NCBI GenBank assembly: GCA_963782055.1
Contig: CAWAIF010000003.1
Span: forward strand, 1,984,001 to 2,048,000
DNA length: 64,000 bases
Source of the DNA: an uncultured delta proteobacterium
GTDB taxonomy: Bacteria > Myxococcota_A > Polyangia > Polyangiales > Polyangiaceae
Reading direction: 5' to 3'
Part shown: in pieces, positions 6,504 to 31,893 of the stretch
Numbering within the stretch: the first letter of the stretch is position 1
Layout: each line of letters begins with the position of its first letter
Program-made: the position numbers and the translations under genes
The notes under the pieces: model-generated
What the model saw: only the letters and a program-made list of their open reading frames with translations
Databases searched by the model: none
Told to the model about the DNA's origin: nothing

Positions 6504-7910
6504 TCAGATACGCAGCACGTCCCCGGGCGCCGGGACGTGGATGTCCGGGATGCCGTGCTGCTCCATCTTCTGCTCGAGGACCCGCTGCGACTGCGGCTCG
6601 CCGTGGACCAGCGCCACGTGCGCGAGGTGCCCGGCCTCCTTGACCGCGTCGGCGAAGGCGAGCAGGTCCGCCTGGTCGGCGTGCGCGGAGAAGCCGTTGA
6701 GGACGAAGACCTCCGCCCGCAGATCCCGCTCCACCCCGAAGATGCGCACGCGCGGGCGCCGCTCCACCAGCCGGCGGCCCAGGGTGTGCTGCGCCTGGAA
6801 GCCGACGATGCACACCGCGTTCTTCTCGCTCTCGATGAGGGCCTTGAGGTGATGCACGACGCGCCCGCCCTCGCACATGCCGCTCGCCGAGATGATGACG
6901 CACGGGTCCTTGCTCGCGTCGATGGCCTTGGAGTCGGCGACCTCCGAGATGTAACGCAGGTCTTCGAAGTCGAAGGGCGACTGGTGCCCGGCGAGCAGCG
7001 CGCGTGTCTCGTCGTCGTAGCAGTCGGGGTGCATCTTGAAGACCTCGGTGATGCGCACCGTGAGCGGCGAGTCGACGTAGACCGGCATCGACGGCATCGC
7101 GCCGCGCGCCTTCAGCCGCTTGAGGGCGAAGACGATCTCCTGCGCGCGCTCCAGGGCAAAGCTGGGGATGACGATCTTTCCACCACGCTCGTACACGCGC
7201 TTCAGGACGTGCGCGAGCGCGTCGTCCATCTCCTCGATGGGCGCGTGCAGGCGGTCGCCGTAGGTGCTCTCGCTGATCAGCGTCTGCGCGTCCGGCGGCA
7301 CCTCCGGGTCGCGCAGGATGGGGATGTGCTTGCGGCCCAGATCGCCGGTGAAGACGAGGCGCTTGTCGTGGCCGTCGTCCTCGATGTCCAGGATGGTGAT
7401 CGCGCTGCCCAGGACGTGCCCGGCGTCGACGAAGGTCACGCGCACGCCCGGCGCGATGGTGTGGCGTCGGTGGTAGGGGATGGAGATGGTGGCGTTGAGC
7501 ACGCCCAGCACGTCCTCCGGGCCGTAGAGCGGCTCCACCGGGTCCATCGGGGCGTGGTCCCGCTCGATGGCCCGATTGATGTACTCCGCATCGTACTTCT
7601 GGATCATCGCCGCGTCCTCCAGCATCGCGGCGCACAGGTCGCGGGTGGCGGGCGTGGTGTAGATGGGGCCATCGTAGCCCTGCTTGATCAGCAGCGGCAG
7701 CGCGCCGGAGTGGTCGATGTGGGCGTGCGAGAGGACGACGGCGTCCACGTCGGCGTGGTCGAAGCCCAGGTGCTGGTTCTTCTCAATCGACTCTCGCCGG
7801 CGACCCTGGAAGAGTCCGCAGTCGAGCAGGATGGTGGCGTGCTTGGTGCGCACCAGGTGCTTGCTGCCCGTGACGGTCTGCGCGGCGCCCACGAACTGGA
7901 TCTCGATCAT
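6504..7910 (-). CDS. MBL-fold beta-CASP ribonuclease
   Basis: HAHIDHSG, AGHVLGS, FTGDLG, ESTYG, SASGM and FSAHAD motifs. Confidence 0.93.
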   Translation of the reverse strand: MIEIQFVGAAQTVTGSKHLVRTKHATILLDCGLFQGRRRESIEKNQHLGFDHADVDAVVLSHAHIDHSGALPLLIKQGYDGPIYTTPATRDLCAAMLEDAAMIQKYDAEYINRAIERDHAPMDPVEPLYGPEDVLGVLNATISIPYHRRHTIAPGVRVTFVDAGHVLGSAITILDIEDDGHDKRLVFTGDLGRKHIPILRDPEVPPDAQTLISESTYGDRLHAPIEEMDDALAHVLKRVYERGGKIVIPSFALERAQEIVFALKRLKARGAMPSMPVYVDSPLTVRITEVFKMHPDCYDDETRALLAGHQSPFDFEDLRYISEVADSKAIDASKDPCVIISASGMCEGGRVVHHLKALIESEKNAVCIVGFQAQHTLGRRLVERRPRVRIFGVERDLRAEVFVLNGFSAHADQADLLAFADAVKEAGHLAHVALVHGEPQSQRVLEQKMEQHGIPDIHVPAPGDVLRI

Positions 7911-8058
7911 GGTCGAGAGGGTAGCCAAAACTCGGCGGCGCCGCAGCCTTCGCCAGTGCGGGCGCACGCGCTGCGCGTCCGACTCGGCCGCCCGCGCGCA
8001 TCCGCAGCCGTGGGGGGCCGCTCGTCGTGGTGGCCCTGGCCTTGCAAACGCTGCCCTC

Positions 8059-8829
8059 ATGGCGAAGCGATTCGACGGGATGGTGGCGCTTGTCACCGGG
8101 GCGGCTCGAGGCATCGGCGCGGCGACGTGCCGGCGGCTCGGCGACGAGGGGGCGACGGTCTTCGCGTGCGACGTGCTGGACGAGGAGGGCGAGGCCATGG
8201 TCCGCGACATGACCGCGGGCGAGCGCGACGCCTTCTACCTCCACCTCGACGTCGCGGTGCAGAGCCAGTGGCAGGCGGTCGTGCAGCAGGTGGCCGCGCG
8301 CGCGGGACGTCTGGACGTCCTCGTCAACAACGCCGGGATCGCCCGGCTCGAGGACATCGAGCAGGAGACCGTGGAGGGCTTCGCGCACGTCATCGCGGTC
8401 AACGAGACGGGGGTGTGGCTGGGGATGAAGAGCGCGATGGCGATGCTCAAGCAGTCCGGCGGGAGCATCGTCAACGTCGCGTCCATCCTCGGCACGGTGG
8501 GCGGCAACGGCACCGCCATCGCCTACCAGGCGTCGAAGGGGGCCGTGCGGCTGATGACCAAGAACGCCGCCATCCGCTACGCCAAGGAGGGCGTGCGGGT
8601 GAACTCGGTGCACCCGGGCTACATCGAGACGCCGATGGTGGCGCCCTTCCTCTCCGGCGAGACGGAGGTCGCCACGCAGATGCGCGCGTACGTGGAGGCG
8701 ACCACGCCGATGGGGCGGCTCGGCCGCTCGGAGGAGGTCGCCGCGGCGATCGCCTTCCTGGCGAGCCGCGACGCGACCTACGTGACCGGCAGCGAGCTCT
8801 ACGTCGACGGCGGCTGGACCGCGTGGTGA
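8059..8829 (+). CDS. Short-chain dehydrogenase/reductase
   Basis: TGAARGIG, NNAG, YQASK, VDGG. Confidence 0.93.
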   Translation: MAKRFDGMVALVTGAARGIGAATCRRLGDEGATVFACDVLDEEGEAMVRDMTAGERDAFYLHLDVAVQSQWQAVVQQVAARAGRLDVLVNNAGIARLEDIEQETVEGFAHVIAVNETGVWLGMKSAMAMLKQSGGSIVNVASILGTVGGNGTAIAYQASKGAVRLMTKNAAIRYAKEGVRVNSVHPGYIETPMVAPFLSGETEVATQMRAYVEATTPMGRLGRSEEVAAAIAFLASRDATYVTGSELYVDGGWTAW

Positions 8830-8854: not shown

Positions 8855-8869
8855 TAGGATGCGCCCATG
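8855..8869 (+). promoter_or_regulatory. Putative -10 box with leaderless start codon (5' exon of intron copy 1)
   Basis: TAGGAT, 6 nt, ATG; no SD. Confidence 0.55.
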
Positions 8870-10906
8870 GTGCGCCGTGAAGAAGCAGGTCGTCCGTCGG
8901 GCATGCCCGACGAACGACCTGCCTCAAGCTGCGCTTCTCCAGCGGGTGAGAGTCCCGCACCGGTAAGCGTCGGAGCGCCGGGTAGCAGGCCCCAGCCGAG
9001 CGGGAGAGATCCCGTCGGCCGAGCGGGGCGTCGAAAGGGTCCACGGACCGAGCGAGCACGCGGGCCGCAACATGAAGTGAAGCTTGCAGCCTCGTCAGAT
9101 CTACAAACCGGGAGCCGAGCCGATCATGTCGCGGCGAAGGCAATATCGGCGGCGCCAGATCCGAAACGCGCCGTCGGTCCCGGCGGGGTAGGGAGCGCAG
9201 CACGCGTGCAAGGAGGAGTGCGGAACTCGGGAGGCCCGTCTGCGTCGCCCTCGTCGGGGCAAGGCGCGTCGTATAAGCCAGAGGCGAAGTCGGCCGCTGC
9301 GCAGCGGGAGTCCGAGGGGGTCACTGTACCGAAGAGCGAGGCGCGAGCTTCGCGAACGAACGCCGTGAAGAACAACGCGGCAGGAGGGAAAGACCCCTGC
9401 AGTGGTCGTGTCGGCGGAGCAGGTAAGCGCGAGGGCATGGCCGGCGAGACCGGTCCCAACCACCCCCATCGGCGACAGCCCATGGACAAAGTGCGACAAC
9501 TGCAACGCCGGCTGTGTGCCGCGGCCAAGCGGCATCCGGAGCGCCGATTCCACGCGCTGTATGACCGCATCGCGAGGCGTGACGTCCTCGCGGAAGCGTG
9601 GAAGCGGGTAAGGAGGAACAAGGGAGCCGCGGGCGTCGATGCCCAGACGATCGCGGCGCTCGAGGTGTACGGAGTGGATCGACTCCTCGGAGAGATCCAT
9701 GACGTGCTCCGTGCAGGCAGGTACCGGCCGGCAGCGGTGCTGCGCCGGTACATCCCGAAGGCCGATGGGAAGAAGCGGCCGCTTGGGATCCCGACGGTCC
9801 GAGACCGGGTGGTGCAGATGGCGACGAAGCTCGTGCTGGAGCCGATCTTCGAGGCGAGCTTTCGCTCGTGCTCGTACGGCTTCCGTATCGGGCGGAGCGC
9901 GACGGACGCCCTGGAGACGCTGAGGAAGCTCGGCGCGAAGGGGTACAACCACGTGCTCGACGCCGACATCCGTGACTACTTCGGGAGCATCGATCACGAC
10001 AAGCTGATGAAGCTCGTCGAGCGGCGCATCTCGGACCGGAGGGTGCTCAAGCTGCTGCGGCAGTGGCTCACGGCGGGGGTGATGGACGAAGGCACGGTGA
10101 CCAACCCCTCCAGCGGCACGCCGCAGGGCGGGGTGATCTCGCCGCTGCTCTCGAACATCTACCTCGCCGTGCTCGACGACGTGTGGACGAAGCGGTGCGC
10201 GCATCTTGGCGAGCTGGTTCGTTATGCGGACGACTTCGTCGTGATGTGCAGGACGAAGCGTGACGTCGACGAGGCCGAGCTTCGCGTGAAGCACGTGATG
10301 ACGCGACTCGGGCTCGAGCTGCACCCGGACAAGACGAGGAAGCTGGACCTCTCCTGGGGTAAGAAGGGGTTCGACTTCCTCGGCTGCCACCTGCGGAAAC
10401 GCTTGAGCGGGTCCATCTGGGAGAGGTCGCGCAAACGCGTGTACTTCCTCCAGCGCTGGCCATCGGCTCGCGCGATGAAGCGGATCCGGCAGCGCGTGAG
10501 GGACCTCACCCCGCGATCACGCTGCCACGCGGACCTGCGCGACGTCGTCGCGCAGCTCAACCCCGTGCTGCGTGGCTGGGGCGAGTACTTTCGCACCGGG
10601 AACGCCGACGTGAAGTTCAACCGACTCGACGAGTACGTGTACGAACGGCTTCGAGCGCTGCGCCTGAAACGGGCCGGCTCGAAGCTCAAGGCCGGACAAG
10701 CCGAGCGCTGGACCCGCGACTACTTCGTCGAAGGCTTCGGGCTCCACCGCCTGCGCGGGACCATCCGCTACCCGGAGGCCGCGTAATGCCGCGTCACGAG
10801 AGACCACCGGTAAGCCGTGTGCGGGAAATCCGCACGCACGGTTTGAGAGGGGGTCTTGACTCCAACCGCCGCCGTAGGGCGGCCAAGGTGTAAGGATCTA
10901 CCAATG
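8870..10906 (+). mobile_element. Group II intron copy 1 (2037 nt), inserted after the host ATG
   Basis: 5' GTGCG; domain V 10812-10844 with AGC triad; domain VI with bulged A10900; RT ORF; boundaries fixed by comparison with copy 2. Confidence 0.95.
9482..10786 (+). CDS. ltrA: Group II intron RT/maturase without endonuclease domain (frame open from ATG 8867)
   Basis: RPLGIPTVRDR, DADIRDYF, GTPQGGVISPLL, YADD, FDFLG, domain X LNPVLRGWGEYF; no HNH tail. Confidence 0.96.
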   Translation: MDKVRQLQRRLCAAAKRHPERRFHALYDRIARRDVLAEAWKRVRRNKGAAGVDAQTIAALEVYGVDRLLGEIHDVLRAGRYRPAAVLRRYIPKADGKKRPLGIPTVRDRVVQMATKLVLEPIFEASFRSCSYGFRIGRSATDALETLRKLGAKGYNHVLDADIRDYFGSIDHDKLMKLVERRISDRRVLKLLRQWLTAGVMDEGTVTNPSSGTPQGGVISPLLSNIYLAVLDDVWTKRCAHLGELVRYADDFVVMCRTKRDVDEAELRVKHVMTRLGLELHPDKTRKLDLSWGKKGFDFLGCHLRKRLSGSIWERSRKRVYFLQRWPSARAMKRIRQRVRDLTPRSRCHADLRDVVAQLNPVLRGWGEYFRTGNADVKFNRLDEYVYERLRALRLKRAGSKLKAGQAERWTRDYFVEGFGLHRLRGTIRYPEAA

Positions 10907-11560
10907 TCGCACTGGGAGCACCGACCCGAGCCGAAGTGGCGTGAGTTCAAGTTCAACCAGCCGTACGCGAAGGGGCTGAAGCGCCTGCGCGAGGAGGTCC
11001 TCGCCAAGACCGACTTCGACCCCGCGACGCTCTGGCAGTGGGGGACGATGCAGGCGATGGCGCTGATCGAGGTGCTCAAGTCCTGCGAGGCGACCTTCGG
11101 CGCGGAGGGGCAGAAGCTGGTGCAGGACGCGCTCCATCGCGTCGGTCAGGACGTCGGCCGGCAGATCCTGGAGGGTGTGGAGATCCCAGACGACCTGACC
11201 GAGACCGAGTTCATCTCCTTCTACGCCACGGTCATCAACCGCATCCCGTACGCCTCGCTGGAGGCGCCGCGCATCGACGCCGAGGGCAAGGCGACCTTCG
11301 ACATCCTCTGGTGCCCGCACCAGGACCACTACGGCGCCTTCGACTGCCGCGTGCAGCGCTACTTCGTGCAGGGGATGATCGACGCCGCGCGCGAGCACGC
11401 CGCGGGCTTCGGCTTCGAGGTGCGCTTTGACACGACGATCCCGTCGGGGTCGCCGACGTGCCACTTCACGATGTGGAAGCCGACGGAGGAGGAGCGCGCC
11501 GCGTGGGAGGGCACGACGAAGCTGATCGAGGACAAGGCGCTCGCCCGCGCGAAGCGGTAG
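10904..11560 (+). CDS. Hypothetical protein, host gene of intron copy 1 (possible V4R/ATC-hydrolase-like fold)
   Basis: 218-aa ORF with WCPH, DC and CHF motifs; ATG supplied by the intron end or by 8867 after splicing. Confidence 0.75.
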   Translation: MSHWEHRPEPKWREFKFNQPYAKGLKRLREEVLAKTDFDPATLWQWGTMQAMALIEVLKSCEATFGAEGQKLVQDALHRVGQDVGRQILEGVEIPDDLTETEFISFYATVINRIPYASLEAPRIDAEGKATFDILWCPHQDHYGAFDCRVQRYFVQGMIDAAREHAAGFGFEVRFDTTIPSGSPTCHFTMWKPTEEERAAWEGTTKLIEDKALARAKR

Positions 11561-18607: not shown

Positions 18608-18623
18608 AACGGTCGTGCCCATG

Positions 18624-20660
18624 GTGCGCCGTGAAGAAGCAGGTCGTCCGTCGGGCATGCCCGACGAACGACCTGCCTCAAGCTGCGCTTCTCCAGCGGG
18701 TGAGAGTCCCGCACCGGTAAGCGTCGGAGCGCCGGGTAGCAGGCCCCAGCCGAGCGGGAGAGATCCCGTCGGCCGAGCGGGGCGTCGAAAGGGTCCACGG
18801 ACCGAGCGAGCACGCGGGCCGCAACATGAAGTGAAGCTTGCAGCCTCGTCAGATCTACAAACCGGGAGCCGAGCCGATCATGTCGCGGCGAAGGCAATAT
18901 CGGCGGCGCCAGATCCGAAACGCGCCGTCGGTCCCGGCGGGGTAGGGAGCGCAGCACGCGTGCAAGGAGGAGTGCGGAACTCGGGAGGCCCGTCTGCGTC
19001 GCCCTCGTCGGGGCAAGGCGCGTCGTATAAGCCAGAGGCGAAGTCGGCCGCTGCGCAGCGGGAGTCCGAGGGGGTCACTGTACCGAAGAGCGAGGCGCGA
19101 GCTTCGCGAACGAACGCCGTGAAGAACAACGCGGCAGGAGGGAAAGACCCCTGCAGTGGTCGTGTCGGCGGAGCAGGTAAGCGCGAGGGCATGGCCGGCG
19201 AGACCGGTCCCAACCACCCCCATCGGCGACAGCCCATGGACAAAGTGCGACAACTGCAACGCCGGCTGTGTGCCGCGGCCAAGCGGCATCCGGAGCGCCG
19301 ATTCCACGCGCTGTATGACCGCATCGCGAGGCGTGACGTCCTCGCGGAAGCGTGGAAGCGGGTAAGGAGGAACAAGGGAGCCGCGGGCGTCGATGCCCAG
19401 ACGATCGCGGCGCTCGAGGTGTACGGAGTGGATCGACTCCTCGGAGAGATCCATGACGTGCTCCGTGCAGGCAGGTACCGGCCGGCAGCGGTGCTGCGCC
19501 GGTACATCCCGAAGGCCGATGGGAAGAAGCGGCCGCTTGGGATCCCGACGGTCCGAGACCGGGTGGTGCAGATGGCGACGAAGCTCGTGCTGGAGCCGAT
19601 CTTCGAGGCGAGCTTTCGCTCGTGCTCGTACGGCTTCCGTATCGGGCGGAGCGCGACGGACGCCCTGGAGACGCTGAGGAAGCTCGGCGCGAAGGGGTAC
19701 AACCACGTGCTCGACGCCGACATCCGTGACTACTTCGGGAGCATCGATCACGACAAGCTGATGAAGCTCGTCGAGCGGCGCATCTCGGACCGGAGGGTGC
19801 TCAAGCTGCTGCGGCAGTGGCTCACGGCGGGGGTGATGGACGAAGGCACGGTGACCAACCCCTCCAGCGGCACGCCGCAGGGCGGGGTGATCTCGCCGCT
19901 GCTCTCGAACATCTACCTCGCCGTGCTCGACGACGTGTGGACGAAGCGGTGCGCGCATCTTGGCGAGCTGGTTCGTTATGCGGACGACTTCGTCGTGATG
20001 TGCAGGACGAAGCGTGACGTCGACGAGGCCGAGCTTCGCGTGAAGCACGTGATGACGCGACTCGGGCTCGAGCTGCACCCGGACAAGACGAGGAAGCTGG
20101 ACCTCTCCTGGGGTAAGAAGGGGTTCGACTTCCTCGGCTGCCACCTGCGGAAACGCTTGAGCGGGTCCATCTGGGAGAGGTCGCGCAAACGCGTGTACTT
20201 CCTCCAGCGCTGGCCATCGGCTCGCGCGATGAAGCGGATCCGGCAGCGCGTGAGGGACCTCACCCCGCGATCACGCTGCCACGCGGACCTGCGCGACGTC
20301 GTCGCGCAGCTCAACCCCGTGCTGCGTGGCTGGGGCGAGTACTTTCGCACCGGGAACGCCGACGTGAAGTTCAACCGACTCGACGAGTACGTGTACGAAC
20401 GGCTTCGAGCGCTGCGCCTGAAACGGGCCGGCTCGAAGCTCAAGGCCGGACAAGCCGAGCGCTGGACCCGCGACTACTTCGTCGAAGGCTTCGGGCTCCA
20501 CCGCCTGCGCGGGACCATCCGCTACCCGGAGGCCGCGTAATGCCGCGTCACGAGAGACCACCGGTAAGCCGTGTGCGGGAAATCCGCACGCACGGTTTGA
20601 GAGGGGGTCTTGACTCCAACCGCCGCCGTAGGGCGGCCAAGGTGTAAGGATCTACCAATG
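18624..20660 (+). mobile_element. Group II intron copy 2 (2037 nt), inserted after the host ATG
   Basis: Matches copy 1 at offset 9754; shared internal ORF translations are identical. Confidence 0.95.
19236..20540 (+). CDS. ltrA: Group II intron RT/maturase (frame open from ATG 18621)
   Basis: Same protein as copy 1; YADD. Confidence 0.96.
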   Translation: MDKVRQLQRRLCAAAKRHPERRFHALYDRIARRDVLAEAWKRVRRNKGAAGVDAQTIAALEVYGVDRLLGEIHDVLRAGRYRPAAVLRRYIPKADGKKRPLGIPTVRDRVVQMATKLVLEPIFEASFRSCSYGFRIGRSATDALETLRKLGAKGYNHVLDADIRDYFGSIDHDKLMKLVERRISDRRVLKLLRQWLTAGVMDEGTVTNPSSGTPQGGVISPLLSNIYLAVLDDVWTKRCAHLGELVRYADDFVVMCRTKRDVDEAELRVKHVMTRLGLELHPDKTRKLDLSWGKKGFDFLGCHLRKRLSGSIWERSRKRVYFLQRWPSARAMKRIRQRVRDLTPRSRCHADLRDVVAQLNPVLRGWGEYFRTGNADVKFNRLDEYVYERLRALRLKRAGSKLKAGQAERWTRDYFVEGFGLHRLRGTIRYPEAA

Positions 20661-21068
20661 CGCTCCCTTCTCCTCGCTCTCCTCTCGGCGTCCTCCCTCG
20701 CGCTCGGCGCATGCGGCGGCGTGGCCGTGGACACCTCCTCCGACGCCGGCGCGGGCGCGGACGGCGGTCACGACGCCGCGACCTCCCCCGTCACGTGTCA
20801 GGGCAAGACGTGCGGCGCGGGGGAGGTGTGCGTGGTCACCACCTCCGGCGGCGGCCCGTGCCTCCTGCCTGACGACGCGGGGGTCTGTCCCGACGGCACC
20901 CACACCACCGGCTGCTGCGACAACACGACCACCGGCTACGCGTGCAAGCCGCTCCCCGCCGCATGCAAGGGCAGCCTCGCGTGCCCGTGCGCGGACACGC
21001 TCTGCCAGTGCGGCGGCTGCCAGGTCGCCGACGCGGGCGTGCTCGCGTGCCAGTGCCTGTATCCCTGA
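20658..21068 (+). CDS. Cys-rich lipoprotein, host gene of intron copy 2
   Basis: Complete signal peptide MRSLLLALLSASSLALGAC begins exactly at the intron-terminal ATG. Confidence 0.85.
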   Translation: MRSLLLALLSASSLALGACGGVAVDTSSDAGAGADGGHDAATSPVTCQGKTCGAGEVCVVTTSGGGPCLLPDDAGVCPDGTHTTGCCDNTTTGYACKPLPAACKGSLACPCADTLCQCGGCQVADAGVLACQCLYP

Positions 21069-31820: not shown

Positions 31821-31893
31821 GGGGCCGTAGCTCAGCTGGGAGAGCGCATCCATGGCATGGATGAGGTCAGGGGTTCGATCCCCCTCGGCTCCA
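31821..31893 (+). tRNA. tRNA-Ala(GGC)
   Basis: Cloverleaf; G3:U70; anticodon arm CATCC-ATGGCAT-GGATG; GTTCGATC; CCA not encoded. Confidence 0.96.

Follow-up and report, generated by a model that had tools for sequence, protein, structure and literature searches.

The 64,000-nt window analysed here, part of a myxobacterial contig, contains two copies of a group II intron that apparently ends in AUG and lies directly behind the start codon of a host gene. According to the available text of PMC4238363, the consensus 3′ end of group II introns is AY, the gamma position is a purine, and the natural gamma pairs are G:C and A:U. The locus raises the question of whether the terminal AUG is the true end of a functional intron, and what directs such an intron to start codons. 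Very probably, the element is an active, endonuclease-less mobile intron of the IIB type, from a lineage specialised for leaderless genes.

The intron, its copies, and its relatives

The two copies in the window (Table 1) are identical over all 2,037 nt. Seven of the nine insertion sites in the source genome hold full copies that share 99.95–100% identity at unrelated sites, which argues for splicing competence, and the many identical copies likewise suggest mobility. The 5′ flank is CATG at eight of the nine sites and CGTG at one; the terminal ATG is followed by C at eight sites and by T at one. Domain VI of one further copy is broken by an insertion element of 1,514 nt (G000:C3:5377628-5379141), present in about 14 copies, that is bounded by terminal inverted repeats and contains a frame of 465 codons. 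Another copy is split (G000:C3:2503251-2504075 and 2517652-2518302) and has a 565-nt internal deletion; its 3′ part is inverted, lies 14 kb off, and adjoins another element. The window also contains a tRNA gene at 31821–31893 (Rfam RF00005).

Table 1. Positions of the intron copies, their functional elements, and the adjoining host genes in the window.
Feature	Position	Strand	Basis or remark
Group II intron copy 1	8870..10906	+	GUGCG...CUACCAAUG, 2,037 nt
Group II intron copy 2, identical	18624..20660	+	host ATG 18621–18623, gamma C19067, branch A20654
TAGGAT, –10-like box 6 nt before host ATG; 3′ part putative IBS2	8855..8860	+	sequence, enrichment, covariation
Last 4 nt of 5′ exon (–4 to –1)	8866..8869	+	CATG or CGTG at 9/9 genome sites; EBS1 covariation
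639-codon open frame, host ATG through domains I–III into RT	8867..10786	+	ORF; conserved frame in relatives
delta′ (A), partner of delta U9124	9088..9088	+	182/183 Watson-Crick, both U:A and G:C
EBS2-like segment GAUCU, complementary to 3′ part of target –10 box	9098..9102	+	covariation
delta U9124 and 4-nt EBS1 CAUG (9125–9128)	9124..9128	+	covariation
EBS3 (G), predicted to pair with first base past terminal AUG	9191..9191	+	mutual information, covariation
J2/3 (CGA), gamma = C9313	9313..9315	+	gamma covariation, alignment
RT/maturase core, 434 aa from Met 9482, YADD	9482..10786	+	TIGR04416, 411.5 bits (cut-off 300)
Domain V, catalytic triad AGC at 10813–10815	10812..10844	+	Rfam RF00029; fold
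Domain VI, bulged branch A10900; Shine-Dalgarno-like AGGA at 10893–10896	10849..10902	+	fold
Terminal AUG: gamma′ G10906 and putative replacement start codon	10904..10906	+	covariation, downstream frames
Host gene behind copy 1, 218 aa, weak ATC_hydrolase-like match below cut-off	10904..11560	+	intact from terminal ATG
Host gene behind copy 2, 136 aa, signal-peptide-like, Cys-rich	20658..21068	+	ORF

Parts of the window were found in 20 metatranscriptome runs. In the four runs examined as assembled contigs, these span only the intron interior (8918–10894), with no flank, splice or lariat joint, and are uninformative on splicing because carried-over DNA of a multi-copy element would look alike.

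Relatives were gathered from GTDB genomes, metagenomes, and plasmids as RT matches of at least 54% identity (n = 243). Both intron ends were located for 194 of them, which collapse to 183 distinct insertion sites; the other 49 were unusable because the contig was cut, the copy was interrupted or a duplicate partial one, or an end was missed. The 5′ ends were located with a weight matrix on intron positions 1–14 only. By record title, the relatives include members of Myxococcota, Acidobacteriota, Planctomycetota, Pseudomonadota, Actinomycetota, Spirochaetota, and Gemmatimonadota. In a quick RT tree, 46 lineage members group together as a single clade (SH-aLRT 99); this tree and the second one were built by a quick method and are supported by SH-aLRT only. 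This ATG clade is separate from Ni.ha.I1 (g3), B.th.I3 (g2), Rh.js.I1 (g1), and Rh.sp.I1, whose published boundaries all give AC or AT ends, and is distinct within an unresolved group that also contains Rh.js.I1 and Rh.sp.I1. The intron is one member of a widespread, apparently undescribed lineage that targets leaderless start codons, a wider picture that the original prediction had missed. One genome, of a member of Vicinamibacterales (G402), has 47 matches in two variants with different EBS codes; its copies are strongly clustered on one strand per contig (L041, L050, and others).

The intron has a domain V with the catalytic triad and a domain VI with a bulged A. Its 5′ end, GTGCG, conforms to the GUGYG consensus, as do the ends at 167 of the 183 sites of its relatives (GTGYG). 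It departs from the AY consensus with a purine at gamma in having a UG end and gamma C, with Watson-Crick pairing retained. The predicted EBS3–IBS3 pairing and the intron-internal delta–delta′ pair are features of subgroup IIB, as is the EBS2–IBS2 pairing suggested by covariation.

A flipped gamma pair defines the 3′ end

The original prediction drew domain VI as a pairing of GGGGGUCUU (10849–10857) with AGGAUCU-[A]-CC, from which A10900 bulges. Folding of 10845–10906 reproduces this structure; three of 200 shuffled sequences fold equally well, and the Rfam Intron_gpII alignment likewise leaves the branch A unpaired. The bases named for the 3′ end (C9313, A10900, and G10906) are all found at their positions, as are their equivalents in the identical second copy (C19067, A20654, and G20660).

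The proposed location of J2/3 was retained by the alignment, in which domain II closes at C9312. Positions 9313–9315 read CGA in all 135 variants, and 9313 could pair within the stem only with column 9230, where 113 of 135 have A. The placement rests on our own alignment; the Rfam coverage here excludes J2/3. A minimum-energy fold that draws C9313 into the stem of domain II was rejected on account of the A in column 9230 and the invariant CGA.

It had further been proposed that the gamma pair is flipped to C–G, which would fail if relatives with gamma C ended in AY. They end in G. The end-finder used for the 183 sites demanded a terminal G, which makes its count of 183/183 circular, and the gamma pair was judged instead from an end-blind search in which the branch A was chosen by domain VI complementarity with no end assumed (137 of 149 distinct introns passed the score). 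In this search, gamma C is matched by a G six bases past the branch A in 118 of 126 introns, gamma G by a C in 9/9, and gamma A by a U one base further (+7) in 2/2. Seven of the eight gamma-C exceptions are automatic mis-picks (the true ends are ACCAATG or ACCTATG), and the eighth is a truncated copy. Among the relatives, the gamma pair thus shows natural compensation between G:C, A:U, and C:G. An intron end at G10906, with the branch A at –7, is borne out by this covariation and, independently, by that of EBS3 with IBS3.

A gamma C also occurs in a different clade, in introns L144 (2358-2385) and L148 on Paenibacillus urinalis plasmids, which have the 3′ end ACTCTAG and the 5′ end GCGCG. L144 lies beside its sisters L146 and L149 (gamma G, ACTCTAC), which suggests a second, independent flip of the gamma pair. 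The 3′ end of L144 is not fixed by its flanks because identity between its two copies continues for about 15 bases beyond ACTCTAG; these shared bases past the expected end of L144 and L148 resemble 3′-extended introns. The Paenibacillus introns of this type follow terminator-like hairpins.

Exon pairing fixes the boundary independently

Since exon and intron both end in TG, the flanks alone would let the boundary slide by one or two bases. Domain elements (EBS, delta, J2/3) were named following the general IIB architecture, and the assignments were then checked by covariation. Mutual information with the base that follows the terminal ATG peaks at column 9191 (0.90 bits); the next-best of all aligned 5′ columns reaches 0.35. 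The resulting EBS3–IBS3 pair is Watson-Crick at 154 and G–U at 9 of 179 sites (114 and 6 of 131 when counted per variant), and all four pairs occur. This covariation fixes the 3′ splice site independently of gamma. EBS1 is complementary to exon positions –1 to –4 and reads N-A-U-G; its fourth pair covaries as well (144 Watson-Crick and 21 G–U of 177). Covariation among the relatives thereby establishes the predicted boundaries, the C:G gamma pair, EBS1, EBS3, and delta–delta′.

At 12 of the 183 sites (L049, L062–L067, L075, L079, L163, L267, and L289), the intron begins with UCGCG or UUGCG instead of GUGCG. EBS3 is C at 11 of these 12 sites, and loss of G1 may keep EBS3 from pairing with the first base of the intron itself.

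Reading frame of the RT and the terminal AUG

The RT matches only the families RVT_1 and GIIM, and its ORF ends 34 residues past GIIM; the family profile search found no match to an endonuclease domain in the intron ORF. From the host ATG across domains I–III, the RT frame contains no stop in 78 of 136 variants and is closed in the other 58. Open frames prevail among variants of at least 64% identity (70/89) and are rare below (8/47). The other two frames are free of stops in 1 and 0 of the 136 variants, and the frame stays open in 0.6% of shuffled sequences. Of 28 distinct lengths, 19 are divisible by three. One further in-frame ATG precedes Met 9482, at 9438; internal in-frame ATGs occur in both the open-frame and the closed-frame group, nearly always without a Shine-Dalgarno-like motif. 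In the subclade that includes this intron, the RT is likely translated as a fusion from the host AUG.

The terminal AUG in turn may serve as a spare start codon for the host gene. The frame that begins with it is open for 100 codons at 97 of 119 sites, against 10 and 49 for the other frames. Seven homologues of the gene that follows copy 1 lack the intron and begin at the same Met, and four of the seven have a TAnnnT motif 6–7 nt upstream (judged by eye). The host gene behind copy 2 has no match in a search of protein family profiles. The terminal ATG is preceded by a Shine-Dalgarno-like motif in 65 and by TAnnnT in 52 of 136 variants; 57 have neither.

These signals lend some weight to the possibility that the intron is excised and mobile while its exons are rarely ligated in vivo, so that the host genes are expressed mainly from the terminal AUG, which would then serve translation over splicing fidelity. 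A predicted 5′ exon of only 3 nt and the tandem insertions of an intron behind the terminal ATG of another copy (L198 and L291) point in the same direction. Yet the pairings of EBS1, EBS3, and gamma are all kept, as both splicing steps and reverse splicing need, and the 57 variants with neither signal do not fit. Rare ligation is a possible but somewhat doubtful reading, and is compatible with an active, leaderless-targeting intron as far as boundary and targeting are concerned. In the tandem L198 (G402:C4:2405250-2409560), the end of the upstream intron, TAGGAT-N6-ATG, is itself target-like.

Leaderless-type start codons as targets

At 176 of 180 sites, the last three bases of the 5′ exon are ATG, GTG, or TTG. 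A TAnnnT motif is located 5–8 nt upstream in 135 of 161 targets, as compared to 11.4% of 3,688 host ATG starts, which were predicted with a simple model of our own, and 0.09% of 31,619 internal ATGs; 500 shuffles yielded at most 14. According to the available text of PMC3160421, TANNNT about 12 bp before the start is a signature of leaderless genes. Statistically, the targets are established as leaderless-type start codons, and the same kind of evidence establishes the open frame described above and the predicted EBS2 complementarity described below. In the source genome, the strict TAnnnT box is present at seven of the nine sites; copy 2 is one of the two without it.

About 11% of the predicted ATG starts in the source genome have TAnnnT 5–8 nt upstream (peak, 6–9), which suggests that many genes of this myxobacterium are of the leaderless type. 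Upstream of copy 1, a short-chain dehydrogenase-like gene (7684–8829) ends 38 nt before the target ATG, and read-through from this gene could give copy 1 a long 5′ exon.

The lineage also appears to base-pair with the promoter box of its targets. When targets are aligned on the box with one site per variant (n = 104), intron column 9098 matches the base just past the box, and columns 9100, 9101, and 9102 match box positions n3, n2, and n1, respectively, by Watson-Crick complementarity in 70, 84, 50, and 37 variants. Shuffling gave means of 45.9, 49.0, 37.2, and 26.3, and the observed counts were reached in 0, 0, 0, and 10 of 2,000 shuffles, figures that overstate the case because kin are not independent. 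A9099 faces the final T of the box in all variants, and the columns neighbouring 9098–9102 show no complementarity signal in the same 104 box-aligned targets. The covarying stretch of the target lies at about –13 to –9. An internal control is provided by G402: introns with the EBS2 variant CAUUC have G after the box in 11 of 12 cases, whereas those with GAUUC have G in 4 and C in 10 of 17 (Fisher p 0.0005); the EBS1 and EBS3 preferences of the two variants also differ as predicted. The invariant TA of the box has no complement in the intron (columns 9103–9104). Since the TA half has no RNA partner, a protein contact, RNA polymerase, or survival must supply it.

The lack of a partner for TA also favours the view that the boundary is right and the box reflects survival, with insertion after many N-ATG-N sites and persistence of only those copies that are expressed from a promoter and start codon. 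Group II introns depend on host promoters, according to the available text of PMC12584367. Selection of this kind is nevertheless an unlikely explanation of the box. Young, near-identical copies already have it (7/9 in the source genome and 29/38 in G402), only 142 of 6,233 contig C3 sites with the same T, C-RTG-Y pattern carry TA, and EBS2 and box covary base by base, also within one genome.

Other placements of the boundary

A register slid by one base, G-GUGCG...CCAAU, would have a canonical AY end and lie between bases 2 and 3 of the start codon, much as Avi.groEL lies in a stop codon. The flanks allow such sliding, since G closes both exon and intron at 182 of 183 sites, and every member would gain G1, including the 12 that otherwise begin with UCGCG or UUGCG, as well as a penultimate A. 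This register is very improbable, because EBS3 covaries with the base after the G and not with the G itself, gamma would face U, A, or C, and the branch A would fall at –6. Moreover, the ambiguity between ATG and ATG is removed at locus L250, where the exon ends in T (TAAT), EBS1 has the compensating A (AUUA), and the intron ends in ACCAAAG. The delta–delta′ pair is intron-internal (182/183), so the C of EBS1 is not a delta of the IIA type.

Even less credible is a terminal ATG that is a target-site duplication or relic with an incidental gamma C: ATG flanks the intron on both sides at 145 of 180 sites, but the two triplets, at the ends of exon and intron, disagree at 31 of 180, which refutes this reading; identical introns in ATG and in GTG or AGG targets are among these cases. 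In addition, gamma is C in all 135 variants, and a separate clade made the same C:G switch beside G:C sisters (L144 versus L146 and L149).

Proposed mechanism

For an intron that ends at G10906 and inserts behind leaderless start codons, the following cycle can be proposed. Covariation shows the 3′ splice site to be set by the flipped C9313:G10906 pair together with the pairing of EBS3 (G9191) with the next base. The ribonucleoprotein would reverse-splice into single-stranded DNA behind the start codon, probably at replication forks; the single-stranded target is suggested by the absence of an endonuclease. The sense strand is locally G-rich for 8/9 copies at ±250 kb and 7/9 at ±100 kb, which is weak evidence of a replication-strand bias, given the irregular skew of contig C3 and the location of dnaA on a different contig. 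The host promoter would then transcribe the intron, and the host AUG would, in the subclade to which the intron belongs, open the frame through domains I–III into the RT. Splicing with a 5′ exon of 3–4 nt would restore AUG and codon 2. If splicing failed, the terminal AUG, often with AGGA in domain VI, could still start the host gene.

The flip of the gamma pair to C:G would be what enables the intron to end in a start codon. A 5′ exon of 3 nt, which presumes a transcript that begins at the A of AUG, is shorter than the 4-bp EBS1 helix, so the fourth pair and EBS2 could act only on DNA. In a bolder version, the chances of which seem about even, the ribozyme itself would read the promoter, with EBS2 on the –10 box and EBS1 on the start codon; the 5′ exon would be only pppAUG, the RT would be translated from the host leaderless start through the catalytic domains, and the C:G pair would carry the spare start.

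Relation to known group II introns

Introns at start or stop codons have been described for an IIB1 (CL1) clade with a subdomain Ia of 300–700 nt (Avi.groEL, EcKTE56.groEL; available text of PMC12584367). Like the present intron, they lie in or beside host translation signals and replace the signal after insertion (PMC12584367). By contrast, they are proteobacterial CL1 introns, and EcKTE56.groEL is 3,228 nt long as compared to 2,037 nt here (PMC12584367). In the present intron, about 610 nt precede the RT core, an endonuclease domain is absent, the target genes are many and diverse, and the last base is G. No large insertion in subdomain Ia is apparent, since the Rfam D1D4-4 match begins 70 nt past the 5′ end, and the 5′ part of close relatives is 567–702 nt long. 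The protein is not of the CL1 type with endonuclease; the trees contained no named CL1 reference. The available text of PMC12584367 does not mention an association of the Avi.groEL clade with leaderless genes or –10 boxes.

The endonuclease-less classes F (g2–g5) and g1/G and unclassified introns are similar in size (about 2.0 kb, with an RT-X protein of 430–440 aa), in their IIB-type exon recognition, and in matching the same Rfam D1–D4 models (available texts of PMC3552965 and PMC8919778). Members of class F g2 differ in having FADD instead of YADD, and the lineage is separate from B.th.I3; neither does it group with Ni.ha.I1 (g3). RmInt1 (class D, IIB3) likewise has no endonuclease, defines its 3′ site by EBS3–IBS3 and gamma–gamma′, and tolerates a penultimate pyrimidine, but has a G:C gamma pair and a single IS target (available text of PMC4238363).

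Class C introns (IIC), which insert after terminators and at attC sites, share the 4-nt EBS1, the targeting of a signal rather than a gene, and the many copies per genome. Unlike the present lineage, which has an EBS2-like segment and recognises a promoter and start codon, IIC introns are without EBS2 and read a DNA hairpin. Start-codon targets and the putative EBS2 pairing place the intron outside class C. If the ribozyme does read the promoter, this would add a third way of targeting a signal to those already seen at terminators and attC sites.

Some proteins of organellar group II introns are translated in frame with the upstream exon. The RT frame described here is similarly continuous from the host start codon through the 5′ ribozyme domains, with the difference that the upstream exon would be the start codon alone.

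The available texts of PMC3552965, PMC8919778, PMC4424553, PMC4028801, PMC3753933, PMC9294222, and PMC13717195 contain no AUG-ending or leaderless-targeting lineage, and a literature search that covered neither Michel 2007 nor Simon 2008 found no published description of it. At 435 aa and 1,943 nt, So.us.I2 matches the acidobacterial lineage members in size and may be an unrecognised member whose insertion habit was overlooked. The novelty of the lineage is provisional because So.us.I2 may be a catalogued member and these two papers lay outside the search.

The lineage is a natural exception to the textbook AY end; an entire clade shows the compensating change, and its terminal G is shared with spliceosomal introns. 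A 5′ exon of 3–4 nt would mark the minimum with which group II splicing can proceed. As a retroelement, it reaches dozens of copies per genome at gene starts while apparently restoring the start codon, and its insertion sites may point to leaderless promoters in bacteria that have not been cultured. With an EBS1/2/3 code that is short and covaries, the proposed targeting can be tested directly.

Members of the lineage can themselves be invaded: in genome G401 (L047, L154, and L158), two of them hold another group II intron near domain III, and the 5′ parts of these interrupted members lie beyond the inserted intron.
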